DNA from: Cyanophora paradoxa CCMP329
Lineage: Eukaryota; Plantae; Glaucophyta
Reading direction: 5' to 3'
NCBI GenBank assembly: GCA_004431415.1
Contig: QPMI01000479.1
Coordinates: forward strand, 62,001-126,000
DNA: 64,000 nt
Positions 6,593 through 64,000 of the stretch are shown here, piece by piece. Each line of letters starts with the position of its first letter. The stretch's first letter is position 1. Both the position numbers and the translations under genes were made by a program. Under the pieces are notes generated by a model that ran no database searches, was not told the origin of the DNA, and saw nothing but the letters and a program-made list of their open reading frames with translations.

Positions 6593-7004
6593 TTATCACG
6601 GTTCTGCTGTGCGAGAACGATGCCTACGCGGCTCGGCTACGCACCGCGTCGCGGGACTAAAACAGACGCGGTCGCGCCGTTTGAGGTAGGGCAGAGTGAT
6701 GCGCAAGCAGGAGCAACAGGCTACTGCTCTACTGGACGAAGCCCGCTCCCCACGTGCTCCGGCTGCTGAACCTGGCGCCCGACGTACCCCTCAGGCTCAC
6801 ATGCACGAATCGAAGTCACGAAACGCGGCTGCTCCAGCTCGCGCGAGCCCTGAGACGAGCTCCGCGGCTGCACAAAGCTTGTTTGACGCCCGCAGCTGCA
6901 GGCCCGCATACAGCTTCTGAAGAACGAATTTACTACTCGAGCTCGGCGAGTCTCCCCGGGCTTGCTTGAGTTCAGTGCTCGCATGTGATGTCTTTCGATC
7001 GGCA

Positions 7005-15287: not shown

Positions 15288-17764
15288 CTACTCGAGGCGC
15301 CAGCGATCGCCGAGGAGCTGCCGGAGGGCGCCCCAGTCCGACTCGTCGCCCTCGCGCCGGGCGAGCACGAGGTCCCCCGGGGCCGGGGCGGGGTCGGCCG
15401 CCATGTCCGCCAGCGGCCCCAGCGCCGCGAGGGCGTCGGAGAAATCGGATGCCCACAGCCGAGCCGGCTCGGCGAGGGTCAGCGCGGCCCGCCGCAGGCG
15501 CGCGCACGCCGCCAGCGCCTCGCCCTGCCGCACGGAGGGGTACATGGGCAGCCCGTCCTGGTCGTACTCCTCCAGGATGTCCTGGGGGGTACGGCATTGA
15601 TGAGGGGCGCGGAGGGGTACTAATTCGAAGGCGATCGAATCAACGACTCTGGTACCCACCTTGGCGACGTGAAGGAGGAACGTGATGGACACAGCGACGC
15701 TGAGGAACGTGTCGACGTTCGGGGCGGAGCTCGAGATGCCGAGGCGCAGGGATCGGAGGGAGGGCATGGAGGGGAGCGCTTGCGCGAGGGCGTCCGCGGC
15801 TGCCGTAAGGTGGTGCGGGAAGGGGCTCGAGAGGCGGAGCGACAAGCTCTCCAATGCGGCGAAGCTCGGCAGGCGGCTCAGGTGCTCAGGCGGCGGGTCG
15901 TACTTTGAGGGCCTGTCGTTCGCGCCGCTCGTCCTGCGGGGTACACTGTTAGGGAAGGGGCGGGGCGCCCGGGCGGGGTACGGATCCGGATGGCGCGGGC
16001 GCACGGGCCGAGGGAGAGCGAGCGAAGCTGAGAACGGAGGGGCGCGCATTTCTCTGCGTTGAGGAAATCCACGGCCAGGGCCTGACCGAACCCGGCCAGG
16101 GCCAGATCCCGCACGGAGCTCTGCGGGGCGAAGGGGCATCGGCGTCGGAGGGGCGGGCGGGGGGCGGGGGGTACTGGAAGGGAAGGGCAAACCGTCCGAG
16201 CCGCGTCGTGCAGGAATGTGTTGCTGTACCCCGAGCGCGCGTCGAACTCGAGCGATTCGAGATGCGCAGACGTGAACTGGGGCGGCACGTCAGGGGTACA
16301 GCGGCTTCGAGGCGGGAGGAGGGGTAGGGCGGACGTGCCTGGGGGAGGGAGCTGAGGCCCGACGCCTTTAGCCCGAAGACGCGGAGGCAGGGCAGGCTGC
16401 AGAGCGGCGCGAGGGCCGCAGCGTTCGTGTTGCGCGAGCAATTCGATGGAAAGGAGGAGAACGTCACGCGGAGCTCCTGGGAGGCAGTGAGGGGTATAGG
16501 TGGGCGGGGCGCCGGACGGCGGGGGGTACAAATGCGGCGACGGACCTCGAGGTTGGGGCACAGGCTTCGGATTGCGGAGGCGAAAGAGCGCTGGAAGGAT
16601 TTCACCTTTTCCTGATTAGGAAGCTGGTAAAGAGACATCACTGGGAAGAAGTGGTGCGCGATCCTGAGGGATCGCAGCCCGCCCAGCGCCGGGGCGACCT
16701 GTACCCCTGCCGGTGAGGAAGGGGCGCCGCCGGGATTCGAGCCACAGACCTGTTCCAGCAGATCGGCGGAGAAGCCGATGCAGTCAGCGAGGTCGAGGCT
16801 CCGGAGGGCCGTCAGCCGCCGCAGTCCCTCCGTGATCGCGCAGCCGCCAGGGCTGGAAGCGAGGGGCAGGCGGTGGCGGTCGTTGACTTCGGCTGTCTGG
16901 AGGCGGACGCTGAGCTCCTCGAGGGTGCCCGCCACGGGCGCCAGGGCCGCCAGCAGCGCCCCCACGTACGCGTGCCGCGCTTTCGCGCTGGCTGCCGCGC
17001 TCCTCTCTTCGCGGGCAACCACATCCCTGTGCAGATTTCAGCCAAGGCGGCGTGCGGCGCGGACGCCGCGCCCGCACCCGTGCCAGGCGACGAAGCGGCG
17101 GAGCCCCTGCAGCGAGGAGGCGAACGAGAGGAAGGGCCTGGCCGGCTCAGGCATCCAGAACGACGGCTGGATGCTGTCGGCGCCCGCGACAGACCTGCGC
17201 GCGCAGGGGGGCGCTCAAAGACTCCGTAATGGCCATGGAGAGACGGGGCAGCGGGCACCCGACCTCATAGAACGGCGGGCGCCACAAATCGACCTCCAGC
17301 GCGCCGCCCGCCGCGAGCCGCAGGGCGCTCGACTGCGCGCGCAGCGCCCATGACCGGAGCTCCGCCTCGGGCACGTCGCGGTACCGCGAGACTCCGCCGC
17401 GCTGCCCGCGAAGAACGAGCGCGTCGAACTCGATTGACGCAAGTGCGTCGCGCATCCGGCGGCTGACGAGCGGGAGGCGGCAAACTTGCCACGCCTCCCG
17501 CAGGCCGAGAAAGCCGATGACGCGCTTCAGCAGCTCGTCAGGAAGAAGCTCGAGGGCGGAGAAGTCCGACGCGGCCCGTGGCTTCTGCGCTGCGTATGCA
17601 GGCTCGCTGCCGGCCGCCGCCGCGGGCGCCGGCTCTTCTCCCCGCTGGCGCTTGCCGCCCACTGGAGAGTCCTCTTCCTCTTCCGAGCTCGAGTAGCGCC
17701 CCAAGCAGGTCTCATCGCCGACGTGCGGCCTGCCGCGCTTCTGGCCACCGCCGCCGCGAGCCAT
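15288..17764 (-). CDS. F-box protein with LRR-like repeats, multi-exon
   Basis: F-box-like LELLPDELLKRVIGFLGLREAWQVCRLPLVSRRMR near the N-terminus. LRR-like LEELSV, LRSLDLADC, LRSLRI, LESLSL, LRSLRL. Confidence 0.7.
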
Positions 17765-45017: not shown

Positions 45018-48000
45018 ATGTCGGGTCCGGGCTCCTCTCGCGACCAGGTGAGCGCAGCTTTCGGCTGCACTTTTCGCGCGATTCGCATCCGAAGCGCGAA
45101 ATCCGTCTGCAGAATGCAAGGCGGGCGCCGCCTGCACCGGTACCATCGAGTACGAGTGACAGCCAGGAGCAGCTGCAGCTGCAGCTGCACCAACTACAGC
45201 AGCACGCCATCTGTCTCAAGGATCAGATTAAGAGCTTGGAGGGCAGCCTGCAGCGAGAACAGCGCTGGGCCGACGAACTTGAGCGAAAGCTGAACGTAAC
45301 AGAGACGCAAGCTCGCAATCAGTCCAAGCGAGCATCGGATGAGGCGGCAACCCGCCGGCGGGCGGAGGACAGGGCGGTAGAATTCTCGCGCCGCGCGCAG
45401 GGGGCCGAAGCAAAGCTGGCCGACGCCTACAAGGATCTTCGCGCGGAGCGCTCGTCGGCTGTGGTCGACGCCAAGATCGCCAAGGAGGAGCTGGACAAGG
45501 CGAGGACAGAATCGAGGCAGCACCAGCTTGCCTTGAAGGCTTCGGAGGCGGCAGCCGTGGCGGCCAAGTCGGAGCAGAGGAAACTAGCGAATGACCTGGC
45601 GGCGTCGCGGGCCGCGCAGGCGGCCGCGGAGGCGGCGGCCGCGAAAGCGACGACGGAGCTGCTCCAAGCACGCTCTTCGGCCGCCGCGGAAGCTGCGTCC
45701 GCCAAGACCGCCAAGGAGGAGCTGGAGAAGGCGAAGTACCAATTGGGACTGCATGAGCTGGCGTGGAAGACTTTGAATTCCAGACTCGGCGAGGAGCGAA
45801 CGCGGCGCGAGGCGGCGGAGCGGCGCGCAGAGGAGGCGGAGGCGGCGGCCGCGGCGGCGAAGGCGGAGCTGGCGAAGCAGGCGGAGGACCTGGCGGCGGC
45901 GCGGGCGGCCGCGGACGAGGCGAAGTCGCTGCGGGGCGGGTGGAGGAGGCGGAGGCGGTGGCCGCGCGCCTCGCGGCGGAGCTGGAGATCGCGCGGGCCG
46001 CGATGGCGCTCCGCGAGGAGCGGGGCGCGGCGCGGGCCGCGCGACCCTCCGCGGCCGAGACCCGCCGCCGGGCGATCTCCGTCTCTCCGCCCCGGGCAGG
46101 CGAGGCTCGCGGAGTCCCCGAGGTGCGCTGGGGAGCCAGAGAGTTCATTAGCAACTGCCATATCTAATTCTGTTAGTTCATATCGATATCTAATTTATTC
46201 TGTCTCACCGATCATTATTTGCAATTGCAGGTCGTGGATCTCGACACTCCGGCCAAGCCGGCACCCGTCGTAGCGAATTCGAAGCGGCTCAGCGTGTCGC
46301 TGCGTCTGCGCGAGCCGATGCCGCGGGCGTCGATGTCGCGGGCATCGTTTTCGCGGGCGTCAGTCTCGCGGGCATCATTTTCGCGGGCGTCGATTTCGCG
46401 GGCGCTGGTGAGCGCTTCGGAGATCCCGCCGGCTCTGTCTCTCTCGCGCACGCAGCTGACTTCAGCTTGTCGACAGCGGAGCAGCATCCGAGGCGAGAGC
46501 CCTTCGCGCCGCGAGCGGCCGCGAGCATCCAGCGCGGACCGGGGGCCGGCGGCGGGGCCCCGCGGGCGCCTGAGCGCCATCCCGGCATCGCCCGCGGCCG
46601 CGCGAGACGGATCGCGATCGGGCAGCCCGCGCAGCTGCGTCTGCTGTACCCCGAGCTCGAAGGCGTCCGCGGCCGGCGCCGGCGCCGGCGCCTGCGGCAA
46701 AGTAGACCCGACCCATGGCCAGTGCCCCCGCCCGGTCCAGCCGGCGCCGGCGCTCGCCGCGCTCGAGCTCGAGCTCGAGCTCGGCGAGCTCGAGTCGACG
46801 CCTGTTCGGCCGGCCCGCGCGCGCTCCGAGGCGCCTGAGGCGACGCCGGCTCGCGATCGGCCAGCGCCGGCGCCGCCCGCGGCTGCGGCGGCGGCGGCGG
46901 CGGCGGCGAATTCGAATGCGCATGCGGAGAGGCCGAAGCGTCCGCGCTCGAGCCCGCCGGCGGCCGGCCGCCACCGCTCCGTTCTTTTCGCGGGGAGCGA
47001 GCCCGATCGCGGGGCGCCGGTCCGCGTTCAGCCGGCGGCGTCTGCGGCGGCGTCTGCGGCATCGGCCCCGCTGGCGTCGCCCGCGGTCGTCCAGGAGCAG
47101 AAGCGCCGGCGGCGGCGGCACTCTTCCGTGTCGCCGCCCCGCGGCGCCGGGCGGAAGCTCGATCGCGACCGCGACGCGGAGCGGGAGCGGGAGCGGTCGC
47201 GGGAGGAGCGGCGGCGGCGGCAGGCGCGGATGAGCGCGCGGGAGTGGCGCGAGGAGCTGGATCGCCTCTTCGCGCTCGAGCTGGAGGACCGCACGCGGGC
47301 CGAGTGGCTCGCGAGCGCCCTGGAGCGGCAGCGCGAGGCCGAGCGGCGGCTCGCCGACCTCGAGGAGCGATGCCGCAGGGACCACTTCCCCGCACTGTGC
47401 GCGCGGCTCCTAATTTCTTCCAAGCTTCAACTTTCTTAAATTTATTCGCGCCTCTCATTCTCTCCATATATGCATTGATTGATACATGGTCGCAAAACCC
47501 CTATCGTGATATCGATGACCCTCGAGCTCGCGATATCGATGACCTCGCGATATCAGCTTAACCTCTCTTGAATTTCTTAGCGCAACTCATTAATGTTCTC
47601 TTAACGACCTCGCAGGTACCGGTACTACTACGACATGCGCGGGATGATCAACCGCCCGAACGAGGCCCGAGCTCGCGCCGCCACCGCCCCCGGCCCGGCC
47701 CCGCCTCGACCCTCGCCTTAAATTTCGCGGCGCAGGACGAGGGCACGATCTACGTCCTCCTGGACACCAACGTCTACCTGCACGAGGAGAAGGTCCGCAA
47801 TTGCAAGTCCCGGCACCGGTTCGGCCGAGCCGCTGGAAACAGCTGCGCGTGGGGAGGGGGGCAATATGATTTCTTATCTTCGACTCCTGCCTGGCCGGAC
47901 CTATCCGAGCAAATGTAATTTGGTTTTTGAGAAGGCCGCCAGGTCCGCGAGTGGGAGCGGCTCCTGCGCTACGCCGCCCGCGGCGTCCTCCTCATCGTCC

Positions 48001-50405
48001 CCCGCGTCGGTGCGGTCTTTTACATCTACCTGATCGTGATCGTGAACCTAGGTGTACATGTGTCCCGCGCGCGAATTCGATCCCGCGGCCGATCGATCCC
48101 GCGAAATCAAACTATAGCTAAACGCGGTCGGCCGCGTCCTGTCGGCCCGGCCTCGAATGCAGTGGAGAAGGAGCTGGACAAGTACCGCCAGAAGGCGTAC
48201 ATCAGCACCAACCCCCGCGAGCGCGAGGCGGTCCGCTCTCTCGATCTCCAGATCTAAATTTGATTTCGATGACCCTAGATTTGATCTAGATCTAGATCTA
48301 GATCTGAATTAATATTTGCGGATTCGAATTATAGCTGGAGGTTGAAAGCACCCACGATTGATCACGGATTCAATGTATATGTACCTCCTGCAGGCGTGCC
48401 TAGCTATAGATCCAAGATACCTCCCGCTCCCTAGATCAAGATTTAATTCGATCTGGATCTAATTCGCCTCGGGCAGGCGTGCCGGGCGGTGGCGGTGATC
48501 CAGGAGCACATGGCGGGGGGCCGGGCCTTCCCCGCCCTCCGCGTCGCCCTCCCCCACGAGCAGGTGCCCGCGCGCGCTTCAAAAGCTTAAGATAGGTCAA
48601 TGGGTAAAAAGATAGGTCGAAGTCAAAGATAGGCGCGGTGCCCCTTCGCGCCCAGGCCTTGAGGTCGAAACTTAAAGACAGGAGGCCTGGGCCGTTGTCC
48701 CGAGCCCCCGGCCCCGCCCCTCCTGAAGCCCTCCCCCACGAGCAGCTGGCGGTGGCCGTCGACGCCGGGCGCCCCCGCAACAGGTCAGCCTCCCGATCGG
48801 GCAGCAGCTTGCTCGACTCGTCGAGCCCGAGCGCGCCTAGTTGTCTACTTTAAGCTTGCCCCTGCAGGGGTGGGTAGCCTATAGCTAAAGCCTCATGATT
48901 GATATCATATAAGGCGGAAGCTTAAGGGCCCGGGGCGCTGCTCGAGCTCGCTCGACTCGTCGAGCGCTCTACCCGACCCTCTAACCTCGCCCGGCGCGCC
49001 CGGCCCGGCCCGCGTGCGCGCGCAACAGCGACGACCTCATCGTCGACACCGCCGCCTACTTCGCCGCCGTGCGCAACGAGCCACTCCGCCGACACGCGCG
49101 CATCTGGTCTGGTCTAGAGAGCGCACGGCGGCGATTCCCCCGGCCCTCCCATGGCCCTCCCTCCCCACCCTCGCCTCCCCCGATATCGATTCCCCCCGCT
49201 CACCTACTTTAAATTAAATCCCTCGAGCTCGCTTCGCTCCTACACCGCCGCCTGCTTTGAATTTGCCGCCGTGCGCTATAGCTCGCGACTGGCTTCACTT
49301 GCGATCGGAATCATAAAACCTAGCTATAGCGCGCGGAGCTTAAGAATTTATAAATCACGCATATCTGACAGGCATTCGAATTCAGATCGCGGCGTCGCCG
49401 GGGCACGTTCTTCTTGTTACATTCGACAAGGTGCGGCCGTGCGAGGGGGCCGGGGGGGCGCCGGCGGGCTGACCATGAGCGCTACCTATTTCTCTGGACA
49501 CGTTATAATTAACCGGGGCCAATCACCCGAATTTCGCATGGGATGTTCAACTGATCATGAGCGGGGGGGCGGTCTAGCTATATATAGATGCGGGCGATCT
49601 AGATCTGAGCGCTAGCTTCCCTCTAGATCTAGCCATGGACCAGGTAGTCGACTGCAGCTGGCCATGGTCGACGTCTCGCGATATATAACACCGATCGGAG
49701 GCTCATGATCATGACCGGCGGCTTTGATTTTCGAATTCGCCGCAGGGGATGTTCAACCGGGCGGCGGCGGCCGGCCTCCGCGCCGCCCCCGAGCTGCGGA
49801 GGGCGATGGCCGACCTCGGCGCCGTGCGCACTTAAGCTTCGAATTCGAATTCGAATTCGATCTCGGAAATTAAATTGCAATCGATCTAGATGCATGATCA
49901 TGAACTATAATTAGCTTCTATATTATTCGATTATCATGGCATGCGCACTGCGATTTAGCTGCTGCCTGTACTCGGAAATTAAATTGCAATCGATCTATAT
50001 GCATGATCATGAACTATAATTAGCTTCTATATATATAATTCGATTTTAAACTGCAAATTGCATTCGATCGTATATTCATAGCAAGCATGCAATAGCTCAT
50101 AAATTACGCGCTGCGATTTAGCTGCTGCCTGCGCGCGCTCCGATTCGCCATCGACGTCGACGCAAATTGCGATGCTTAATCAACCTATATGCATTAATAA
50201 GCTTCGATTTCATAAGATATTAATATTAATATTGCGAATTGCAATCGATGACATAAGCGTCAATTAATCAATATATATATATATACGTACGCGTGTACTC
50301 CCTACTCCCTGCGCTAACGCCTGCGCGATTCCGCCGACATCGATGCAGGTGGTCGACCGGTGGTCGATGGCGACGGAGGATCGTCGCGGGATGCTCCTCC
50401 CGTAG
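45018..50405 (+). CDS. Long coiled-coil protein with C-terminal PIN ribonuclease domain (Swt1/SMG6-like PIN), multi-exon
   Basis: In-frame splice DHFPAL|YRYYYD links the coiled coil to exons YVLLDTNVYLH, LIVPRVVEKELD, NSDDLIVDTAAYF, VLLVTFDK|GM (D,E,D,D). Needs one extra G in the run at about 45935 (probable homopolymer error). Confidence 0.7.
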
Positions 50406-50583
50406 CTATATTATATAAAGGGCGCAATTGAGGTTGCATTGCCTTCTAGGTTCCCTAAACATGAGCCCAGGAGAACCTGAAATGCGAAACCCGAATTTGA
50501 ATTCATGCATCGAATGAAGCATATATATATACGCATTGCGCATGCCGCTGCAATTCGCAAGTACGGCGAGATCCTGCTAAAGA

Positions 50584-51205
50584 TCAATTAGTATTGTGAG
50601 GACTCCCGCATCCCCCCCCCCCCCCCCCCCCCCCCCCCCCGCCTTCCGAGAACCTGGCCCGTGCAGCCGCCTCAGATCTAGATTCTAGATCTAGATTGTC
50701 GCGGCACCCGGATTCCGTCGGAAGCACGTCCTCGTCGCGCCACAGGTACATCTTGATGATGTCCGACACACTCCTAGAGTCTGGCGCGCAATTTAATCCC
50801 AGCACGCATCCTGGCGTCCCGCTGTTGTTCGCGCGCGCTCGCGATCGGAATCAGCTTCTCAGGTGATCGGTCGGAAGGGCACGTCACGTATACGTAGAAC
50901 ATTGGTATGTGTGCCGTGGTACCCCGGTGTGCCAATGTGATGTCCACTTTTAATTTGCAAAAACAAAAAAGGAATCAGCTTCTCAGGGTCGCGGGCGATA
51001 ATGCACAGGATCGAGATTAAGATATCGATGCAGACCTGAGTAGCCGAGATGCCATCCCGGAGAAGCTCCTCGAGCGTCGGCCAGTCCGGATCCCGGAGCC
51101 GCAAGAAACTTCTCCTGCAGGCCGTTACTAATTATAAGTTATCTCCGAGTCGAGGTGCAGAATGAAGTAGCTAGACCATTTCTCGAAGCCGCCAGGGCAG
51201 GACAT
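50584..51205 (-). CDS. Small hypothetical spliced gene
   Basis: GT-AG joins keep the frame: MSCPGGFEKW|RSFLRLRDPDWPTLEELLRDGISATQ|WTSHWH..CST|GTPGCVLGLNCAPD..PTESG. No homology recognised. Confidence 0.3.
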
Positions 51206-51580
51206 CTAGATCTTGAGGTCCGCTGAGGCTATAGCTAGAGGTGTCGATCGCGCGATATCGATCGCGTGCGCGATATCGATCGCGAGCTCTTATGTATATA
51301 ATTAATTATAAGCTTCCGGAACAGAAGCTTCAGCGCTGAGGTATACGTACGTGCGCTTCGCCGAGGCGAACAGAAGATCGCGCCCTGCTGCAAGTTAAAA
51401 TTATAATTACCCGTATTATGGGCCGTATACGCGTAGCCGGCGCACTGCGGCACTGCCGCACTGGCCCAGTGGCGGCAGTGCGGCACTGCGGCACTGCGGA
51501 TCGAAGGGGGTAGGGGTAGGGGGTGGCCCGCCCGGCCCCAATTGCAAAAGCGAAACTGACGTATAAACGGACCAGAAGAG

Positions 51581-51675
51581 ACACATATTGAAAAACGAAT
51601 TTAAATCCCTCGTTCATCTCGATCGCTTCGCGATCTCGATTCACTCTGGATTTAAATTCGTTTTTCAATATGTGT
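51581..51675 (-). repeat. 95-nt terminal imperfect palindrome (hairpin), copy 1
   Basis: 28-bp perfect arms 51581-51608 / 51648-51675, a 12+12 partly paired segment, GATCGC/GCGATC stem and 3-nt loop. Confidence 0.95.
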
Positions 51676-51996
51676 TAATTTAACTACTAAAATACATATT
51701 TATCGATTAATTTCTTTAACTTTTTATGCAAACTTTGTATAAATTAATGCAAACTTTGTATTAAAAATGATAAACGCGTTTAATTTAATGCATATTCACG
51801 ATTGATTCGATCGATATTATATCGATATATTATGTTCTTTGTCGATTACATATATAACTTCGATTGATTAACATTAAACTACTTAAAGAACGATATAATC
51901 GCGATTAATTCGCATAAATTCGCATAAATTCGCATAAACTCGATATATCTCTCTGGTATTGAAGTAGACCACCGCCCATTCTGTATCGAAAAACGC

Positions 51997-52260
51997 AAAA
52001 AGTGTCACAGAGTTGCATCATGTCCAATTAAACAATCGATGGAATTGCGGATTTACATTTTTGCACCGAAAAAGTGTCACAGAGTTGCATTATGTCCAAT
52101 TAAACAATTGAAGAGATTGCGCGATTTTCTATTGGAATATATCGGAACTGCATCACGTCCAATTAAACAATCGATGAGATTGCGGATTTACATTTTTGCA
52201 CCGAAAAAGTGTCACAGAGTTGCATGGTCTCCAATTGATCAATCGATTAGATTGCAGATG
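51997..52260. repeat. Subterminal imperfect tandem repeats (about 63-72 bp, four cores)
   Basis: Recurring aaaaagtgtcacagagttgcat..tccaattaaacaatcgat..attgc; repeated at about 58778-59040. Confidence 0.85.
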
Positions 52261-52368
52261 TTCTATAAAACAGAATAAATGAAATCAAGTGTGACAGATA
52301 GTATTCAAATGATATTCAGTAAGATATATTTCTGTTTTTGAGAAGAGTAGTAAGGGGGGCAGAATGTC

Positions 52369-52804
52369 TGTGACGCCTGTGACGGCTGTGACGCCTGTTT
52401 TCAGAAGTCTGTCATTTTTGAAAATTTTAAAAAGTTTGAAAGTAGGCGTCACAGGCGTCACAGGCGTCACACTCAATTAATTTAGGTGTCACAGCGAAAT
52501 TGCAGACCATTTCCAGTAAGACAACTTCGCATTTTCGGAAAGGTGGATTAATGGATAGTGTTTTGTAGGTGTCAGAGGTGTCACAAGACGGATTTCAGTA
52601 AGACAAGAATATATTTTTGAATATCTCAGTAAGAGAAAGAGATTCCATTTTTAATTGGGTGTGACGCCTGTGACGGCTGTGACGGCTGTTTTAAGAAGTC
52701 TGTCATTTTTGAAAATTTTAAAAAGTTTGAAAGTAGGCGTCACAGGCGTCACAGGCGTCACAGTCAATTAAAGAGGCGTCACAGTCAATTAAATAGGTGT
52801 CACA
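52369..52804. promoter_or_regulatory. Duplicated inverted iteron-like array (putative replication origin), copy 1
   Basis: TGTGAC at 52369/52378/52387, AT-rich spacer, GTCACA at 52448/52457/52466. The module is repeated 291 bp later (52660-52762) with extra GTCACA at 52778 and 52799. Confidence 0.6.
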
Positions 52805-52863
52805 CCCGATTATCTGACCATTTTCAGTAAGACCATCTGAAATTCTGAATTTCTCAGTGTCAA

Positions 52864-53265
52864 CTAACTCGGAAATCGCAATACTCTATGTTTCTCCGAT
52901 TTCTCCAACCCTGAAAACACACCTGTTATTCTCTCATCTATCTCATGAGATACTCTCGTGGTTTTCCTCTCTGCTTCTAATCCACAACTGAATATATCAA
53001 TCGCCAACATACCTTCATTTGAGTAACAATGAGCAGTGCAATGGCTCTCATCCAGCAGAAGAACCATTGCAAAACCAGGAGGAGAAATACCACCATCGAA
53101 AATCTCGCAATGCTTGTGAACTACTCGAATACCTTGCTCTTGAATAATAGTTTGCAAGAACTGCATTAACCACCTGGTTGTTGTCTCCAAGTCCTCCATT
53201 CCTACTGCTAATTGGGTTCTGAATTTGTAATCCAGCATCACATGGAAACCTCGATGAGTATTCAT
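52864..53265 (-). CDS. speD: S-adenosylmethionine decarboxylase proenzyme, short prokaryotic/viral class 1B type
   Basis: 133 aa; GFAMVLLLDESHCTAHCYSNEGMLAIDIFSCG matches the ESH self-cleavage (pyruvoyl) motif and the D.F.CG motif. Confidence 0.88.
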   Translation of the reverse strand: MNTHRGFHVMLDYKFRTQLAVGMEDLETTTRWLMQFLQTIIQEQGIRVVHKHCEIFDGGISPPGFAMVLLLDESHCTAHCYSNEGMLAIDIFSCGLEAERKTTRVSHEIDERITGVFSGLEKSEKHRVLRFPS

Positions 53266-53305
53266 TTATGAATAATTTAGAAAAATTAAAAACGCGAATG
53301 GTAGA

Positions 53306-53455
53306 ATGCGAACCATCTTAGCAAGAGTGCTACCTTATGAGTTGGTGGATATCATTCTGCTGCACTACCACAAGACCTGTCCCAGCTGCTTTGACACATG
53401 CATAATCACAAAGGGAAAATGGGGAAAGATTCTCATTTCTCTCTCAAAGATCTAA
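53306..53455 (+). CDS. 49-aa ORF with F-box-like LPxELxxxIL start and CxxC
   Basis: MRTILARVLPYELVDIILLHYHKTCPSCFDTC..; fills the gap between neighbours and its TAA overlaps the TAG of the convergent gene. Below the ORF-track cutoff. Confidence 0.5.
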   Translation: MRTILARVLPYELVDIILLHYHKTCPSCFDTCIITKGKWGKILISLSKI

Positions 53456-53724
53456 TCGAAATATAATACTACTGGTTTATCATCTATCACGATTCCTGAT
53501 GTCGTCTTTTTTCTATATGCATGAGAGGATTTCTTGTTGCATTCTCTGCATCCACTTCCCCTTACATGATTAAATGGGTAGGTTTGCAGGATCTTGTTGC
53601 ATTTAAGGCATCTAACAGAGACCTTCTCTTGTGCTTTCTTATAGACTGTCTCACTATAATCGAATTTAGCATCACCATGAACCATCATTGCAGATTCTAT
53701 GAATTTCTTTGTTTTATCATCCAT
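53452..53724 (-). CDS. Stand-alone Zn-ribbon protein (DUF723/CapR-like module of viral homing-endonuclease-type proteins)
   Basis: FIESAMMVHGDAKFDYSETVY..KVSVRCLKCNKILQTYPFNHVRGSGCREC. Confidence 0.7.
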   Translation of the reverse strand: MDDKTKKFIESAMMVHGDAKFDYSETVYKKAQEKVSVRCLKCNKILQTYPFNHVRGSGCRECNKKSSHAYRKKTTSGIVIDDKPVVLYFD

Positions 53725-53753
53725 CCCTCTCTCTATATATATACCTGAGATTT

Positions 53754-54583
53754 CTATGGAGCAGTATCCTGTCCGAAAATGGGGAAGTAGCGATTTGTGC
53801 CGTAATATTCTGCATATGTATTCTGTTTTGCAATAGCATCGGTTCTCTCAGCATAGAGAATGCATTTGTAGATACCAAACCTGGTGGCTCTCACCAAGAA
53901 CTGGTAATCTTCAAGACCGAAATTCACTCCATGATAAGCAATTCCGAAATTGTCATATGGCGTGATCACAACTGCAATATTTGGGGTTCCACCCTCTACT
54001 TGACAGACAGCATAAACATCTGGTGGGATATCGACAACCACCTTGTAGTGGTCACCAATCTCAACAAGAGAATCAACTACTGATGTCTGCTCATTCACAA
54101 CAATTGGGAAGATCTTGATAATATATGGTGCATTCATACTGGGGACATAGGTGCGAATTCTGGTGTTGGGATCAATGGGATTGGGTTGATCATTTACGAA
54201 AAGAGGCGCACCAACAGCTCCACCAATCCGAAGACCATCACCAATATATGCTCCCCCGTTTTGCAGTTAATAGCTCCCGACCGAGATTCAAAAGAATAAG
54301 TAGAAAGAGGATCACCATAACTGTCTGGGTCTCCATAGTGGGCAGAAAAGTTTGCATTTGTGACAAGGAGTTTCGTTGTCTTAACTATACCATTATTTTT
54401 ATCACACCTGAGTTCTTGCAATCTCAGTTTGTGGGTGGAACCAAATGTATTCATTGTGGGTTGCACTTCTGTGGATTGGAGACCTTCTACATCATCAAAG
54501 GTAGCATGCTGCAAAACGTGATTTGCAGGTGCTGCTAATGAGAGTTGGGGTGTAATAATTCGTTCTGGTATTGGGGCAGCCAT
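53754..54583 (-). CDS. Putative virion protein A (276 aa), split here by a 1-nt homopolymer deletion near 54253
   Basis: Intact in copy 2 (60533-61363); C5 versus C6 run. Paralogous to the adjacent 291-aa ORF. Confidence 0.65.
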
Positions 54584-54584
54584 T

Positions 54585-55460
54585 TTACATTAAAGTGATA
54601 TATAATTTATGGGTTGGGTCATCAATCACATCTGGTTCCTGGTAAAACCCTGTTGTGAAGATATCTGCAACGTTTACCCCTCGAAGTGCCGAAACAGCTG
54701 CTATATCTGTCCTCAGTCCCATAATCATAGTATTGTAAACTCCAACCTCAGTTACAAACAAATCATAGGTAAATGTCAAATTGTTATAAACACAATATCC
54801 TCGACCGAAATGGTTTGATGCTTGAACAAAGAATAGGTAATTATGACCTGTTTGATTGTTGTTTGCTCTGCACATAGATAGCATTGCTGTGGGAAGCGGA
54901 ATATTTCTTCTTACTCGATCAGTTCCTGTTATAATAACCAATTCCGAATTTTCAAGAGTGACAGAGGAAGCAACATAGAAATGTAGAAAAGGTTGCTGTG
55001 CAACTGGTGTATAGAAACGTATTCGTTGGGGATTCTCTACATTTTGTTCAAGAGTATCTGGGACATCATTATACGAAATGGAGGATGAGAGTTGACCTGA
55101 CACTCTGCAACCTCCCCCAATAAATGCTCCTCCTGATCTCACAGTAACAGCAGCAGTATTCTTATCGAAATCAAGGGCTTTTAAATCTACACTGTATGCA
55201 TCAGGACCTCCATTTGTCGGTTGAAAGAAGTTAGCATTTGTTACAAGTAGTCGTGTGGTTTTAACTACACCCGAATTCTTATCGGCTCGGAGTTCTTTTA
55301 CACGAATCATCGAGTTTTTATCAAAGGAGTTACCATTAGAATTGGGTCTCTCTGTGGATTCTAAACCGCGAACTTCATCATTAACTTCATGTTGTCGAAA
55401 GTGCATAGCTGGCGATCCAAGCGAATAAATGGGCAGTTGAACTCGATTGTATTCACCCAT
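54585..55460 (-). CDS. Putative virion protein B (291 aa), paralog of protein A
   Basis: Shares ELRxDKNxGxVKTTxLLVTNANF and GGAxIGxGxRxxG with protein A. Its stop abuts the next ATG. Differences between copies are mostly synonymous. Confidence 0.7.
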   Translation of the reverse strand: MGEYNRVQLPIYSLGSPAMHFRQHEVNDEVRGLESTERPNSNGNSFDKNSMIRVKELRADKNSGVVKTTRLLVTNANFFQPTNGGPDAYSVDLKALDFDKNTAAVTVRSGGAFIGGGCRVSGQLSSSISYNDVPDTLEQNVENPQRIRFYTPVAQQPFLHFYVASSVTLENSELVIITGTDRVRRNIPLPTAMLSMCRANNNQTGHNYLFFVQASNHFGRGYCVYNNLTFTYDLFVTEVGVYNTMIMGLRTDIAAVSALRGVNVADIFTTGFYQEPDVIDDPTHKLYITLM

Positions 55461-55509
55461 TGCTTCTTTTACTAAGAAGGATAGAAAAATAAAGGAGAAT
55501 CTAAGTTAA

Positions 55510-58361
55510 TTATGGTATTCCATATGCTGTCCAATGGATTGTGCAAGTGATACTACGACTTTCAGATAGAGTAGGGGATGCTATGAATGTCACATAAATT
55601 GTTGTATATGTAGATGTGGAGTTTGAGATTCCAATTCTAAAATCTACATCCCCGGGGTTTGTTGCAGGAGTTCCTTGAAGAGTGGCATTTACAACAGGTG
55701 TTTGTGTGTAAAAAGCAGGATTCCAATTTAAAACATATGCATGCTGTGTTCTCTGACCCGCGCTTATCACACCACTTGTAGCTTCGTATTTTCCTGATTT
55801 GAAACGTCTTTCTATATCAGACCAAGTTGGAAGTTGGCTAATTGTATTGGTGGTTCCCGAATTCATTGCATAAAATGCTCTTGCATAAGCATTTCCGCGA
55901 CAGAGTAGGGTTTTATCATAGAAGTTTGCTGAATTGTGGAAGAACCAAGTTTCCTCATTTGTAGGCGATGCAGGGGCTACTATTTGACCTGATCCTACAT
56001 ACATAGTATTATTTGCAGTGATTGTATTGGCTGTGAATGGGTCTAAACTTGGGAGATCTGTGATTTCTGATTTAGTATGAGTATGGGCGAAATCTGTAAT
56101 ATTTGCCTTTGTGTGAGTATGGGCAAAGTCGGTGATATCTGATTTAGTGTGAGAGTGAGGTCCGACAGTTGTAGAAGCTGTTGGTTTCCCATAAATGTTA
56201 TCCCAATGCAAGAAGCCGCTATGTGAGGATACAGTGGGGTTCTTGCTCCAACCTACAAGACCCACAAGGTAAATCCTTCCTATTCGCCCTTGAACACCCA
56301 CTTTACTCAGCCCTTCACAATTCACTCCGACATATTGCCTATACTCTACACTTGGGTCACTACCAGGAGAATAAGCATTTACTCTCGAAAGTGTATAAGA
56401 ATTCGTTGATGGATAAACTCCCACAACATCGAAGTATCTGCTATTATATTGACACACATAGAAGATATAGCATGTTTTCATTCCCGCAGGGACAGTCCAT
56501 AACATCTTGTAGCCACTACAATCTTCATCACCAGAAGCCCATGTGTTTGCTCCTGAGTAAGGAGATATAAATGTGAAAAATCTCCAATCGCCTGTGCGAT
56601 CTGTTGAAAGACCATTTGTGGCATCAAAGTTGATGGGGGATGTGTATGTTGGTTTATTTATCAGATCATCGTAATTTCCTGTCGTTGCAACAGTTGCAAG
56701 ATTAGGTCTATCTGTGATATTTGACCAAGCATGAGTATGGGTTGCAGGAGGGAATGTTAAAGGTTTATCTGTGATATTGTTCCATGCATGACTGTGAGTT
56801 TGAAGTGCAACACCCAATTCGGTTTCATCTATATAATTTTTGCTTTGCAGGTAATCGTCTGTGACCACACCTGAAAGGGTCTCGTTGTGCAGGTTTTTAG
56901 CCGCCATTCTCTGATTGGCTTCAATAGCCCCACCTGATAGCGTTTTAATCCAAGCGATCTCAGCTTTACTGTAATTATCAGTTGGTTGCCCAACAAGTGG
57001 AATATAATTGAGTTTATCCCGAGTGAAAACTATCTTAGGTCTTGATCCATCCAAGCTGCTTACATCTGTCACATTCACATGGACAGCTGCTGAGAAGTCT
57101 TGATAACCCGCAGGATTGGAGGGAACACCGAACCCATCCTTTGGAATATCGTTTTTGTAATAGCTTGTCACATAGATATTCGGGAAAGTGTCACCCGGGT
57201 TAACATACGCCATATCTTGCACTCGGAATTGAGGCAAGCTTCGGACAAATAGAGGTCCTGTCATTGCACTGCCCGCATCAGCCCCTTTGAGGTGAACATA
57301 ATGCTCATTCAAAATAGTTCTTTCCGCAATATTGCAGGATTTATAAAGGGAAACCCCATATTCACAGGTTCGACCTTTGAGAATTCAGGTTGGTTATTGA
57401 TCTCATCCCATGTATGCTCATGGGTTGCAGGTGGGAATATTGAAGGTCTATCTGTGATATTCGACCAAGCATGAGTGTGGTTTTGTATCCATCCCTGCAC
57501 CACATTGGATGTTGTGTAGTTTGGAATTATAGCGTTTGAACCTACTATTAAATTTTTAATGTGGACATAGTCAGAAGAAATTCGCAGATTTTCGGGATAA
57601 TAAAGCGATTGCGTTTTTGGGAAGCCGTAATAATCCTGAATATAGTATCTCACCCTTTGCTTCTCTTCAAACGTTAATGCTCTATTGAAAATGATGTATT
57701 CGGCTATATCACCTATGAAATAGTTAACACCCATCCTACTGAAAGTTGAAGGTGGAAGGTAATTTGTTCCTGTAAAGGTTCCTACATCTTGTCCTCTGAT
57801 TCCAAAGGTTATGCTGTTTGAAGTTATGGTGGTGTCCCAATAATTAGCTGAATAATTATTGGGGATGAACTGTGACTGAGGATTTGTATTAACAGGAAGC
57901 CCATCCATTCTCATTGTTAAAAGGCATTTCGGTGTGGTTTTGGCAGGGTCAGTGTTGGAAGTAATGGGGTAATAGGGTGGATCATAGTAGACATCGATTT
58001 CTGTATTTCCGTCTCCTATTTTCAGCTTTCCCTTCACATTCAGGTTACATGTAACTGTAAGATTGCTACCAATCCAAGCGGATCCTGTGTTGCTACTGTT
58101 TATTGATTTCACTGTTCCATGCACATCCAAATTACTTGTGGTAAGATTGCTTGTTATAATAAGATTTCCATCTATTGTTCCCCCTGATTTTGGCAAGTAG
58201 TTGTTGAGCCACCCTAATGTAACATTACTACTTGTGAGAGGAGCCAAGAGTTCGTTTAATGTAGCTGCACTCACCTTCGAGACAAGCCATCCCTGAACAG
58301 TATTTGAAGAGGTTAGAGGAGCTATTTGAGCATTCACAGTTGCTGTATCAGCCTTAGTAGC
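55510..58361 (-). CDS. Phage-tail-fibre-like protein, 5'-truncated; ORFs 57309-58367 and 55510-57312 are probably one gene
   Basis: YLPKSGGTIDGNL; LamG-like YFIGDIAEYIIFNRALTFEE; repeats H.HAW.NITD.P and HTHTK..ITD; C-terminal F..TPVV.ATL...IHWTAYG (H-type-lectin-like tip). Confidence 0.75.
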
Positions 58362-58456
58362 ACACATATTGAAAAACGAATTTAAATCCCTCGTTCATCT
58401 CGATCGCTTCGCGATCTCGATTCACTCTGGATTTAAATTCGTTTTTCAATATGTGT
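58362..58456 (-). repeat. 95-nt terminal imperfect palindrome, copy 2
   Basis: Identical to 51581-51675. Confidence 0.95.
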
Positions 58457-59149
58457 TAATTTAACTACTAAAATACATATTTATCGATTAATTTCTTTAA
58501 CTTTTTATGCAAACTTTGTATAAATTAATGCAAACTTTGTATTAAAAATGATAAACGCGTTTAATTTAATGCATATTCACGATTGATTCGATCGATATTA
58601 TATCGATATATTATGTTCTTTGTCGATTACATATATAACTTCGATTGATTAACATTAAACTACTTAAAGAACGATATAATCGCGATTAATTCGCATAAAT
58701 TCGCATAAATTCGCATAAACTCGATATATCTCTCTGGTATTGAAGTAGACCACCGCCCATTCTGTATCGAAAAACGCAAAAAGTGTCACAGAGTTGCATC
58801 ATGTCCAATTAAACAATCGATGGAATTGCGGATTTACATTTTTGCACCGAAAAAGTGTCACAGAGTTGCATTATGTCCAATTAAACAATCGATCAGATTG
58901 CGGGATTTTCTATTGGAATATATCGGAACTGCATCACGTCCAATTAAACAATCGATGGAATTGCGGATTTACATTTTTGCACCGAAAAAGTGTCACAGAG
59001 TTGCATGGTCTCCAATTGAACAATCGATTAGATTGCATATGTTCTATAAAACAGAATAATTGAGATCAAGTGTGACAGGTAGTATTCAAATGATATTCAG
59101 TAAGAGATAGTTTTGTTTTTGAGAAAGTCAGTAAGAGGGGTGGAATGTC

Positions 59150-59585
59150 TGTGACGCCTGTGACGGCTGTGACGCCTGTTTTCAGAAGTCTGTCATTTTT
59201 GAAAATTTTAAAAAGTTTGAAAGTAGGTGTCACAGGCGTCACAGGCGTCACACTCAATTAAATTAGGTGTCACAGCGAAATTGCAGACCATTTCCAGTAA
59301 GACAACTTCGCATTTTCGGAAAGGTGGATTAATGGATAGTGTTTTGTAGGTGTCAGAGGTGTCACAAGACGGATTTCAGTAAGACAAGAATATATTTTTG
59401 AATATCTCAGTAAGAGAAAGAGATTCCATTTTTAATTGGGTGTGACGCCTGTGACGGCTGTGACGGCTGTTTTAAGAAGTCTGTCATTTTTGAAAATTTT
59501 AAAAAGTTTGAAAGTAGGCGTCACAGGCGTCACAGGCGTCACAGTCAATTAAAGAGGCGTCACAGTCAATTAAATAGGTGTCACA
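59150..59585. promoter_or_regulatory. Inverted iteron-like array, copy 2
   Basis: Same TGTGAC x3 / GTCACA x3 double module. Confidence 0.6.
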
Positions 59586-59644
59586 CCCGATTATCTGACC
59601 ATTTTCAGTAAGACCATCTGAAATTCTGAATTTCTCAGTGTCAA

Positions 59645-60046
59645 CTAACTCGGAAATCGCAATACTCTATGTTTCTCCGATTTCTCCAACCCTGAAAACA
59701 CACCTGTTATTCTCTCATCTATCTCATGAGATACTCTCGTGGTTTTTCTCTCTGCTTCTAATCCACAACTGAATATATCAATCGCCAACATACCTTCATT
59801 TGAGTAACAATGAGCAGTGCAATGGCTCTCATCCAGCAGAAGAACCATTGCAAAACCAGGAGGAGAAATACCACCATCGAAAATCTCGCAATGCTTGTGA
59901 ACTACTCGAATACCTTGCTCTTGAATAATAGTTTGCAAGAACTGCATTAACCACCTGGTTGTTGTCTCCAAGTCCTCCATTCCTACTGCTAATTGGGTTC
60001 TGAATTTGTAATCCAGCATCACATGGAAGCCTCGATGAGTATTCAT
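59645..60046 (-). CDS. speD: AdoMet decarboxylase proenzyme, copy 2
   Basis: Protein identical to copy 1; two synonymous differences seen. Confidence 0.88.
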   Translation of the reverse strand: MNTHRGFHVMLDYKFRTQLAVGMEDLETTTRWLMQFLQTIIQEQGIRVVHKHCEIFDGGISPPGFAMVLLLDESHCTAHCYSNEGMLAIDIFSCGLEAERKTTRVSHEIDERITGVFSGLEKSEKHRVLRFPS

Positions 60047-60086
60047 TTATGAATAATTTAGAAAAATTAAAAACGCGAATGGTAGA

Positions 60087-60236
60087 ATGCGAACCATCTT
60101 AGCAAGAGTGCTACCTTATGAGTTGGTGGATATCATTCTGCTGCACTACCACAAGACCTGTCCCAGCTGCTTTGACACATGCATAATCACAAAGGGAAAA
60201 TGGGGAAAGATTCTCATTTCTCTCTCAAAGATCTAA
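60087..60236 (+). CDS. 49-aa F-box-like/CxxC ORF, copy 2
   Basis: Identical to 53306-53455. Confidence 0.5.
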   Translation: MRTILARVLPYELVDIILLHYHKTCPSCFDTCIITKGKWGKILISLSKI

Positions 60237-60505
60237 TCGAAATATAATACTACTGGTTTATCATCTATCACGATTCCTGATGTCGTCTTTTTTCTATATG
60301 CATGAGAGGATTTCTTGTTGCATTCTCTGCATCCACTTCCCCTTACATGATTAAATGGGTAGGTTTGCAGGATCTTGTTGCATTTAAGGCATCTAACAGA
60401 GACCTTCTCTTGTGCTTTCTTATAGACTGTCTCACTATAATCGAATTTAGCATCACCATGAACCATCATTGCAGATTCTATGAATTTCTTTGTTTTATCA
60501 TCCAT
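60233..60505 (-). CDS. Zn-ribbon (DUF723-like) protein, copy 2
   Basis: Identical protein to copy 1. Confidence 0.7.
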   Translation of the reverse strand: MDDKTKKFIESAMMVHGDAKFDYSETVYKKAQEKVSVRCLKCNKILQTYPFNHVRGSGCRECNKKSSHAYRKKTTSGIVIDDKPVVLYFD

Positions 60506-60532
60506 CCCTCTCTCTATATATACCTGAGATTT

Positions 60533-61363
60533 CTATGGAGCAGTATCCTGTCCGAAAATGGGGAAGTAGCGATTTGTGCCGTAATATTCTGCATATGTAT
60601 TCTGTTTTGCAATAGCATCGGTTCTCTCAGCATAGAGAATGCATTTGTAGATACCAAACCTGGTGGCTCTCACCAAGAACTGGTAATCTTCAAGACCGAA
60701 ATTCACTCCATGATAAGCAATTCCGAAATTGTCATATGGCGTGATCACAACTGCAATATTTGGGGTTCCACCCTCTACTTGACAGACAGCATAAACATCT
60801 GGTGGGATATCGACAACCACCTTGTAGTGGTCACCAATCTCAACAAGAGAATCAACTACTGATGTCTGCTCATTCACAACAATTGGGAAGATCTTGATAA
60901 TATATGGTGCATTCATACTGGGGACATAGGTGCGAATTCTGGTGTTGGGATCAATGGGATTGGGTTGATCATTTACGAAAAGAGGCGCACCAACAGCTCC
61001 ACCAATCCGAAGACCATCACCAATATATGCTCCCCCCGTTTTGCAGTTAATAGCTCCCGACCGAGATTCAAAAGAATAAGTAGAAAGAGGATCACCATAA
61101 CTGTCTGGGTCTCCATAGTGGGCAGAAAAGTTTGCATTTGTGACAAGGAGTTTCGTTGTCTTAACTATACCATTATTTTTATCACACCTGAGTTCTTGCA
61201 ATCTCAGTTTGTGGGTGGAACCAAATGTATTCATTGTGGGTTGCACTTCTGTGGATTGGAGACCTTCTACATCATCAAAGGTAGCATGCTGCAAAACGTG
61301 ATTTGCAGGTGCTGCTAATGAGAGTTGGGGTGTAATAATTCGTTCTGGTATTGGGGCAGCCAT
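60533..61363 (-). CDS. Putative virion protein A, intact copy
   Basis: Uninterrupted 276-aa ORF. Confidence 0.7.
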   Translation of the reverse strand: MAAPIPERIITPQLSLAAPANHVLQHATFDDVEGLQSTEVQPTMNTFGSTHKLRLQELRCDKNNGIVKTTKLLVTNANFSAHYGDPDSYGDPLSTYSFESRSGAINCKTGGAYIGDGLRIGGAVGAPLFVNDQPNPIDPNTRIRTYVPSMNAPYIIKIFPIVVNEQTSVVDSLVEIGDHYKVVVDIPPDVYAVCQVEGGTPNIAVVITPYDNFGIAYHGVNFGLEDYQFLVRATRFGIYKCILYAERTDAIAKQNTYAEYYGTNRYFPIFGQDTAP

Positions 61364-61386
61364 TTTACATTAAAGTGATATATAAT

Positions 61387-62241
61387 TTATGGGGTTGGGT
61401 CATCAATCACATCTGGTTCCTGGTAAAACCCTGTTGTGAAGATATCTGCAACGTTTACCCCTCGAAGTGCCGAAACAGCTGCTATATCTGTCCTCAGTCC
61501 CATAATCATAGTATTGTAAACTCCAACCTCAGTTACAAACAAATCATAGGTAAATGTCAAATTGTTATAAACACAATATCCTCGACCGAAATGGTTTGAT
61601 GCTTGAACAAAGAATAGGTAATTATGACCTGTTTGATTGTTGTTTGCTCTGCACATAGATAGCATTGCTGTGGGAAGCGGAATATTTCTTCTTACTCGAT
61701 CAGTTCCTGTTATAATAACCAATTCCGAATTTTCAAGAGTGACAGAGGAAGCAACATAGAAATGTAGAAAAGGTTGCTGTGCAACTGGTGTATAGAAACG
61801 TATTCGTTGGGGATTCTCTACATTTTGTTCAAGAGTATCTGGGACATCATTATACGAAATGGAGGATGAGAGTTGACCTGACACTCTGCAACCTCCCCCA
61901 ATAAATGCTCCTCCTGATCTCACAGTAACAGCAGCAGTATTCTTGTCGAAATCTAGGGCTTTCAGGGCAACACTGTAAGCATCAGGACCTCCATTTGTAG
62001 GCTGGAAGAAGTTAGCATTGGTGACAAGAAGTCGAGTTGTTTTAACCACACCAGAATTCTTATCAGCTCTCAGCTCTTTTACTCGAATAATCGAATTTTT
62101 ATCAAAGGAGTTACCATTGGAATTGGGTCTCTCTGTGGATTCTAAACCACGAACCTCATCATTTACTTCATGCTGGCGAAAATGCATTGCAGGGGATCCA
62201 AGGGAATATATAGGCAGTTGAACTCGATTATATTCACCCAT
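61387..62241 (-). CDS. Putative virion protein B, copy 2
   Basis: ATG at 62241 by comparison with copy 1. An extra G near 61391 changes the last residues. Confidence 0.7.
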   Translation of the reverse strand: MGEYNRVQLPIYSLGSPAMHFRQHEVNDEVRGLESTERPNSNGNSFDKNSIIRVKELRADKNSGVVKTTRLLVTNANFFQPTNGGPDAYSVALKALDFDKNTAAVTVRSGGAFIGGGCRVSGQLSSSISYNDVPDTLEQNVENPQRIRFYTPVAQQPFLHFYVASSVTLENSELVIITGTDRVRRNIPLPTAMLSMCRANNNQTGHNYLFFVQASNHFGRGYCVYNNLTFTYDLFVTEVGVYNTMIMGLRTDIAAVSALRGVNVADIFTTGFYQEPDVIDDPTP

Positions 62242-62290
62242 TGCTTCTTTTACTAAGAAGGAAAGAAAAATAATGCGAAATATGCATTTA

Positions 62291-64000
62291 TTATGGGATT
62301 CCATATGCTGTCCAATGGATTGTGCAAGTAATACTTCGACTTTCAGATAGAGTAGGGGATGCTATGAATGTCACATAAATTGTTGTATAGGTAGATGTGG
62401 AGTTTGAGATTCCAATTCTAAAATCTACATCCCCGGGGTTTGTTGCAGGAGTTCCTTCAAGTGTGGCAGTTACAACAGGTGTCTTAGTGTAAAAAGCAGG
62501 ATCCCAATTCAAAACCTGTGCATGCTGTGTTCTCTGACCTGCACTTATAGCACCACTGTAAGCTTGAAATTTTCCTGACTTAAATCGTCTTTCTATATCA
62601 TACCAAGTTGGAAGTTGGCTAATTGTATTGGTGGTTCCCGAATTCATTGCATAAAATGCCCTTGCATAAGCATTTCCTTTGCAGAGCAAGGTTTTATCAT
62701 AGAAGTTTGCTGAATTGTGGAAGAACCAAGTTTCCTCATTTGTAGGCGATGCAGGGGCTACTATTTGACCTGATCCTACATACATAGTATTATTTGCAGT
62801 GATTGTATTGGCTGTGAATGGGTCTAAACTTGGGAGATCTGTGATTTCTGATTTAGTATGAGTATGGGCGAAATCTGTAATATTTGCCTTTGTGTGAGTA
62901 TGGGCAAAGTCGGTGATATCTGATTTAGTGTGAGAGTGAGGTCCGACAGTTGTAGAAGCTGTTGGTTTCCCATAAATGTTATCCCAATGCAAGAAGCCGC
63001 TATGTGAGGATACAGTGGGGTTCTTGCTCCAACCTACAAGACCCACAAGATAAATCCTTCCTATTCGCCCTTGAACACCCACTTTACTCAGCCCTTCACA
63101 ATTCACTCCGACATATTGCCTATACTCTACACTTGGGTCACTACCAGGAGAATAAGCATTTACTCTCGAAAGTGTATAAGAATTCGTTGATGGATAAACT
63201 CCCACAACATCGAAGTATCTGCTATTATATTGACACACATAGAAGATATAGCATGTTTTCATTCCGCAGGGACAGTCCATAACATCTTGTAGCCACTACA
63301 ATCTTCATCACCAGAAGCCCATGTGTTTGCTCCTGAGTAAGGAGATATAAATGTGAAAAATCTCCAATCGCCTGTGCGATCTGTTGAAAGACCATTTGTG
63401 GCATCAAAGTTGATAGGGGATGTGTATGTTGGTTTATTTATCAGATCATCGTAATTTCCTGTCGTTGCAACAGTTGCAAGATTAGGTCTATCTGTGATAT
63501 TTGACCAAGCATGAGTATGGGTTGCAGGAGGGAATGTTAAAGGTTTATCTGTGATATTGTTCCATGCATGACTGTGAGTTTGAAGTGCAACACCCAATTC
63601 GGTTTCATCTATATAATTTTTGCTTTGCAGGTAATCGTCTGTGACCACACCTGAAAGGGTCTCGTTGTGCAGGTTTTTAGCCGCCATTCTCTGATTGGCT
63701 TCAATAGCCCCACCTGATAGCGTTTTAATCCAAGCGATCTCAGCTTTACTGTAATTATCAGTTGGTTGCCCAACAAGTGGAATATAATTGAGTTTATCCC
63801 GAGTGAAAACTATCTTAGGTCTTGATCCATCCAAGCTGCTTACATCTGTCACATTCACATGGACAGCTGCTGAGAAGTCTTGATAACCCGCAGGATTGGA
63901 GGGAACACCGAACCCATCCTTTGGAATATCGTTTTTGTAATAGCTTGTCACATAGATATTCGGGAAAGTGTCACCCGGGTTAACATACGCCATATCTTGC
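62291..64000 (-). CDS. Fibre-like protein, copy 2 (partial; 1-nt deletion near 63263 splits the ORF)
   Basis: ttccgcagg versus ttcccgcagg in copy 1; otherwise colinear, with a variant C-terminal tip. Confidence 0.72.

Follow-up and report, generated by a model that had tools for sequence, protein, structure and literature searches.

In this work, we compared the two copies of a 40%-GC element that lie side by side in the window, that is, in the whole stretch of 64,000 nucleotides analyzed, and found that copy A carries a sharply bounded patch of 745 bases, densely substituted relative to copy B, between nearly identical flanks. Comparison of the sequences gives good support to recombination between long-diverged relatives under purifying selection as the source of this patch, which is probably the trace of an ordinary exchange among related Polinton-like viruses (PLVs); a selected swap of the fibre tip is possible. 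The features of a recombination tract that we found are (i) clustered differences, (ii) sharp borders, and (iii) a donor-type allele elsewhere in the family.

Intron-rich eukaryotic DNA of 68% GC occupies the window up to about position 48,000, followed by mixed DNA to 51580 and thereafter by the element, whose two copies are offset by 6,781 bases (Table 1). Twenty-six host ORFs gave no Pfam match, and nothing within 48000-58400 matched Rfam. The terminus of the element is sharp in both copies and leads into a non-coding stretch of about 1.27 kb that is rich in repeats, the other end being outside the window. The 95-base terminal palindrome is predicted to fold into a DNA hairpin (-32.9 kcal/mol), and may serve as a replication or integration end structure. 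Within the non-coding arm, 52014-52835 contains two pairs of direct repeats of about 110 bases, the second of which holds inverted GGCGTCACA arrays that may act as an origin or bind proteins. The genes of the visible arm (AdoMetDC, zinc-ribbon protein, proteins A and B, fibre and second fibre gene) are all on the minus strand. Proteins A and B (53754-55460) are tandem orphan paralogues, perhaps pentons or fibre-associated proteins, with a conserved N-terminal stretch of 125 residues; sequence searches returned no relatives of protein B, for which the best Atlas score was 0.82, and no relatives of the AdoMetDC were found in viral contigs. Owing to one-base breaks in homopolymer runs at 54252, 61391 and 63263, protein A is split in copy A, and protein B and the fibre are altered in copy B. 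Contigs from public runs favor an intact homopolymer at 54252 and at the position corresponding to 63263, and the extra base at 61391 is found in contigs too; the breaks, present in both copies, are either assembly errors or signs of decaying copies.

Table 1. Features of the element and of the divergent tracts (positions in the window).
Feature	Position	Strand	Remarks
Copy A	51581..58361		left 6,781 bases of 40%-GC element within 68%-GC host DNA
Copy B	58362..64000		begins at exact element terminus, in second fibre gene of copy A; extends beyond window
Terminal imperfect palindrome, 95 bases	51581..51675		TIR-like; repeated at 58362-58456
Second divergent tract, non-coding	52109..52481		23 substitutions in 373 bases (6%)
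S-adenosylmethionine decarboxylase (AdoMetDC), 133 aa	52864..53265	-	PF02675, E 6e-11
Zinc-ribbon protein, 90 aa	53452..53724	-	phrog_681, E 7e-11; like DNA-binding part of phage homing endonucleases
Protein A, 276 aa	60533..61363	-	intact ORF in copy B; copy A version (53754-54583) split at homopolymer run
Protein B, 291 aa	54585..55460	-	matches no known family; 33% identical to paralogue protein A; codons 1-99 within tract
Block beside left border of tract	55040..55163		identical across many family copies; likely crossover zone
Mosaic tract, copy A	55164..55908		84/745 bases substituted, 0 indels; covers fibre 3' end, spacer, 5' third of protein B
Tract counterpart, copy B	61945..62689		carries commoner letters at listed tip sites (55681-55820)
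Fibre, 584 aa	55510..57264	-	phage tail repeats, middle domain, His-Thr repeats, orphan C-terminal domain
Stretch of 360 bases same in both copies	55909..56268		would contain right crossover if tract is recombinant
Second fibre-like gene	57309..58367	-	5' end truncated by onset of copy B

Copy B starts exactly at the terminus of the element, inside a gene that runs on past 58360 in other copies, and is likely a nested insertion into the second fibre gene of copy A, with its far end outside the window. A simple tandem duplication is unlikely, since copy B begins precisely at the element terminus. In other copies of the family, the second fibre gene continues beyond 58361 with a 78-base repeat.

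The element itself is likely, judging from its sequence, the left arm of an endogenous PLV in a glaucophyte-like alga. It displays the GC shift (40% against 68% in the host) and the high number of copies that are traits of PLVs, as well as two traits that are characteristic of glaucophyte PLVs, though not defining, namely the AdoMetDC gene and a phage-repeat fibre (with PTR below the curated cut-off); it is the match of these two to published glaucophyte PLVs that points towards a PLV. The window shows about 6.8 kb of a single arm and contains no capsid, ATPase, polymerase or integrase gene, nor did any ORF of the visible arm match a capsid family.

Alignment of 51581-57219 with 58362-64000 yielded 111 substitutions: 84 in the mosaic tract, 23 in the second, non-coding tract, which the original prediction had missed, and 4 elsewhere. 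The differences are far from uniformly spread: when the substitutions were placed uniformly, none of 10,000 trials gave a stretch of 745 bases with more than 34 of them, against the 84 observed. The flanks had been described as almost identical, and indeed 4 of their 3,993 coding bases differ (2 of 2,682 in the left flank, 2 of 1,311 in the right). Within the tract, 39 substitutions fall in codons 1-99 of protein B (55164-55460), with 2 amino-acid changes (M51I and D92A), 35 in fibre codons 453-584, with 11 amino-acid changes, and 10 in the 49 bases of the intergenic spacer; realignment thus returned exactly the counts first given for protein B and for the fibre C-terminus.

Both coding portions of the tract bear the mark of purifying selection, as had been proposed together with recombination with a diverged relative. 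Silent divergence (dS) was 0.94 and dN/dS 0.009 in protein B, and 0.25 and 0.20, respectively, at the fibre end, the two ratios being far from 1 and lower than expected under neutrality (P 2e-21 and 2e-5). Third codon positions account for 36 of the 39 changes in protein B and for 21 of the 35 in the fibre tip. Furthermore, the 4 coding substitutions in the flanks are all synonymous, an outcome with a chance of about 3 in 1,000 given that about a quarter of the sites are silent, which suggests two selected sibling lineages rather than a neutral local duplicate. Silent divergence is uneven along the tract, where 37 of 69 sites have changed in protein B, against 16 of 53 in fibre codons 453-530 and 4 of 42 in the last 54 codons (P 1e-5), which indicates that the patch was layered from more than one past exchange. 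Methylation-driven CpG decay was ruled out as the source of the tract, as CpG was involved in just 7 of 37 transitions. Taken together, the dN/dS values far under neutrality and the few CpG transitions point towards old divergence between lineages under purifying selection, and not towards decay.

The copies in the window belong to a larger family, which we followed in public sequencing runs. About 70% of the words of the unit were present in 14 of 24 runs, and contigs of five runs were compared, those of X1-X4 at 80% likeness and those of X1, X2, X3 and X15 at 99%; contig depth does not equal copy number in what follows, and the runs may be of one strain. Host-flank contigs had depths of 28-106 (X1-X4), which contigs of the terminus and of the AdoMetDC gene exceeded 24-34 times in X1, X2 and X4 and 61-77 times in X3. 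The conserved block at 55040-55163 was recovered in exact contigs at depths of 2,600-6,900 in X2, where the host flank stood at 106. At the listed tip sites B-type letters prevail (depth about 970-2,000), and copy B letters were also found in the contigs listed at 52345-52360 and 52481 of the second tract. A third haplotype is represented by contigs showing 37 differences over 333 bases and 47 over 277, which exceeds the distance between A and B there, at depths of about 460-1,100. A further contig over 55861-56118 (X2 and X4) has 6 differences from copy A, and is compatible with a near-B haplotype linked to the shared shaft. At 99% identity or more to copy A, contigs of X1-X3 covered 50 of the 84 sites at which the copies differ, the other 34 being outside the contigs listed; at 55647-55816, an A-type contig without any difference reached a depth of 308 in X2. 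Cover at this likeness is absent at 55482-55617 (X1-X3) and mostly absent at 55164-55197 and 55890-55923, holes that prove nothing. As A-type letters occur in contigs of independent runs, the allele of copy A is real DNA, of a minority subfamily. The family is therefore one of high copy number, in which three or more haplotypes occur at the tract, and its copies descend from strongly constrained lineages yet retain several fibre-end alleles. Run X15, guessed to be RNA, gave no contigs on the tract at 99% likeness, a result without bearing on expression. In X2, X3 and X4, substitutions of the third haplotype cluster at 55498-55546, that is, in the last fibre codons and the spacer.

As to how copy A acquired its patch, we lean towards homologous recombination between sibling genomes before integration, which we hold to be somewhat probable. 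Copy A would have taken the 745 bases from a more distant member of the family by homologous recombination, the left crossover falling in the family-wide conserved block at 55040-55163 and the right one in 55909-56268. Such an exchange could have occurred while several sibling genomes co-replicated, for instance upon reactivation; the recombinant would have integrated later, and a sibling would subsequently have integrated into its second fibre gene. The silent differences would then represent old divergence of working lineages, exposed by the exchange and not created by it, and the adjacency of the two genes would explain why the fibre end moved together with the beginning of protein B.

The main rival of recombination before integration is ectopic gene conversion, in which host repair would have copied the 745 bases from a resident copy after integration, without virus replication. 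We regard it as unlikely, even though the data presented here fit either explanation. Donors are present, as A-type contigs show about 3 times the host-flank depth in X1 and X2 (about 6 times in X3), and the depth ratio of the A type to the third type is steady at about 0.3 in X1, X2 and X3, so no subtype seems amplified. The length of the tract and its lack of indels are also compatible with a conversion tract. On the other hand, the four synonymous flank changes and the uneven silent divergence point to a longer exchange among selected lineages, although a donor from such lineages would leave a similar pattern. In view of donors in DNA runs of the same organism, and of the fit of conversion among integrated copies, we regard as conjectural the earlier proposal that the family was recently an active population of free viruses.

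A stronger claim, compatible with recombination, is that the exchange was selected for changed binding of the fibre, whether to the alga or to a helper giant virus. Exchange of fibre tips is known in tailed phages and adenoviruses, whose fibres resemble the present one in having a variable distal segment on a constant shaft; unlike there, however, the patch described here runs into the next gene, and a change in binding or host range is conjectural. In favor of this possibility, a greater proportion of the substitutions alter an amino acid in the tip than in protein B (P 2e-4), 6 of the 11 amino-acid changes are grouped within residues 482-510, three or more tip haplotypes exist side by side, and the nearest Atlas cluster of the tip is that of H-type lectins (0.91, 157 of 256 features). 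Against it, dN/dS stays at 0.19-0.22 even in the most variable part of the tip, in a pairwise estimate in which two sequences give little power for single sites, and the 11 changes are all confined to residues 456-530, the last 54 codons (residues 531-584) having 4 silent and no amino-acid-changing substitutions. Positive selection at the tip, either as dN/dS above 1 or as a surplus of amino-acid changes, was not found in the comparison of A with B. Besides, the second tract is in non-coding DNA, hence exchange was not limited to the tip, and the mosaic tract brings the N-terminus of protein B along. The selected swap of a receptor-binding tip that had been predicted fits poorly with this lack of amino-acid excess, with the patchy silent divergence and with the inclusion of the start of protein B, and we consider an adaptive swap doubtful.

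The resemblance of the tip to lectins deserves a separate comment. The fibre contains PTR repeats at residues 155-185 (E 1e-3, under the curated Pfam cut-off), a middle domain at about 223-365 that is common to other fibre-like proteins, His-Thr repeats at about 369-410 and an orphan C-terminal domain with weak likeness to H-type lectins, which are trimeric beta-sandwich proteins with the sugar site between subunits. No relatives of the tip were found by sequence search, including among the best 150 of 3,170 fibre matches, which align through the shaft repeats and the middle domain, and the tip had no match to the Pfam H-type lectin family (PF09458) even at E 5. Against a profile of 31 H-type lectins, the tip scored 6.0 bits in local mode, a score that 1 of 1,000 shuffles reached and that comes from its last 20 residues only; with end-to-end scoring, 173 of 500 shuffles reached the score of the tip, and a lectin profile built from two sequences gave no information (30 of 500 shuffles). 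The weakly matching end is the part without amino-acid change between the copies. In our view, the likeness to H-type lectins is a weak lead. The Gp53-like C-terminal fibre domain (PF21882, profile of 10 members) was rejected, since the tip score was reached by 125 of 1,000 and 278 of 500 shuffles. AlphaFold single-sequence models (pLDDT 42 for the tip and 29 for protein B) were too poor for mapping the changes, and the Foldseek search with the tip model, which gave nothing at E 0.001, is meaningless at such a pLDDT.

It is tempting to speculate that the family works as an endogenous library, in which dozens of PLV copies exchange via the conserved protein B block and so reshuffle lectin-like tips onto a common backbone. 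We give this idea a low probability; if true, an endogenous PLV population would diversify particle binding through at least three fibre-tip alleles, as phages vary the tips of their tail fibres.

Improbable, in our judgment, is an assembly or polishing chimera, in which both alleles would be real but joined to the present flanks by the assembler within a high-copy family. False consensus and frameshifts in multi-copy endogenous viruses are reported in the accessible part of PMC10120064, and both copies described here have homopolymer breaks. Moreover, none of the contigs listed carries copy A letters across either border of the tract or spans the A/B junction at 58361/58362, although contigs drop rare variants. 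Arguing against a chimera, both copies share at 51809, 51828, 53298, 53383, 53385 and 54711 a letter that is missing from most or all of the listed contig depth, and these six shared minority letters indicate that polishing did not bring the flanks to the majority form of the family. In addition, error-free contigs reach from the host 20-28 bases into copy A in four of four runs, which falls short of the 31 bases called for by the bridging rule. The assertion that the repeat is not an assembly echo hence stands as far as the reality of the alleles is concerned, both being present in independent runs, but less firmly for their linkage, as the borders of copy A and the A/B junction are unbridged in the contigs listed. 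Finally, a tandem duplication followed by local hypermutation or decay in one of the copies, which adjacent copies with frameshifts might have suggested, is refuted by dN/dS far below 1, the 37 silent changes out of 39 in protein B and the recurrence of A-type letters in multi-copy contigs, and we deem its probability negligible.

Mosaicism at the level of modules and domains has already been published for this virus group (10.64898/2026.10.13.758929, in its accessible part), as has nesting of PLVs, and the patch is a further instance of a known process. What is added here is a base-level view of recombination in an endogenous PLV family, where the published accounts, as far as accessible, deal with modules or domains. 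In the endogenous virophage EMALE02 of Cafeteria burkhardae, as described in the accessible text of PMC8547959, an abrupt switch between shared and foreign sequence was likewise read as recombination; however, an 11-kb unrelated module was exchanged there, compared with a homologous patch of 745 bases and 89% identity here. Viral elements within other elements are reported for the PLVs and virophages of Halocafeteria seosinensis in the portion available of 10.64898/2026.07.28.741278, whereas the inserted copy in our case is a near-identical sibling, its nesting being deduced with the far end outside the window. The accessible parts of PMC12344493, 10.1101/2025.10.09.676808 and PMC7242381 do not alter our reading of the tract. 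Our literature search, whose coverage left most subscription journals aside, found no study that treats the fibre mosaics of glaucophyte PLVs at the level of alleles.

The closest described relatives are those of PMC12220804, which share with the present element an AT-rich insert in a GC-rich genome, an AdoMetDC and a PTR fibre. As far as its accessible part goes, AdoMet_dc is present in 66 of the 156 viral elements from glaucophytes (Table S6) and, at lower shares, in those of three cryptophytes (17 of 57, 45 of 706 and 10 of 177); the other 15 host rows lack it. The rve integrase is carried by 85 of the 156 glaucophyte elements. The sole PTR-PTR-H_lectin fibre in that part belongs to a Cyanophora paradoxa PLV, in contrast to which the tip described here is below the Pfam H_lectin threshold. 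The same part makes no allele-level comparison of copies, unlike our comparison of A with B. According to its Table S6, the PLV capsid model was matched by only 2 of the 156 glaucophyte elements, which suggests a divergent, under-described capsid lineage in glaucophytes.

Two side observations follow. Between 55510 and 57485, contig joints connect the repeat blocks of both fibre genes in other ways, such as from 56121 to 56753 or in return from 56777 to 56056, which suggests that additional fibre architectures exist in the family. Within the host DNA, positions 1-303 and 16977-17286 form an inverted repeat of about 300 bases with 86% identity.
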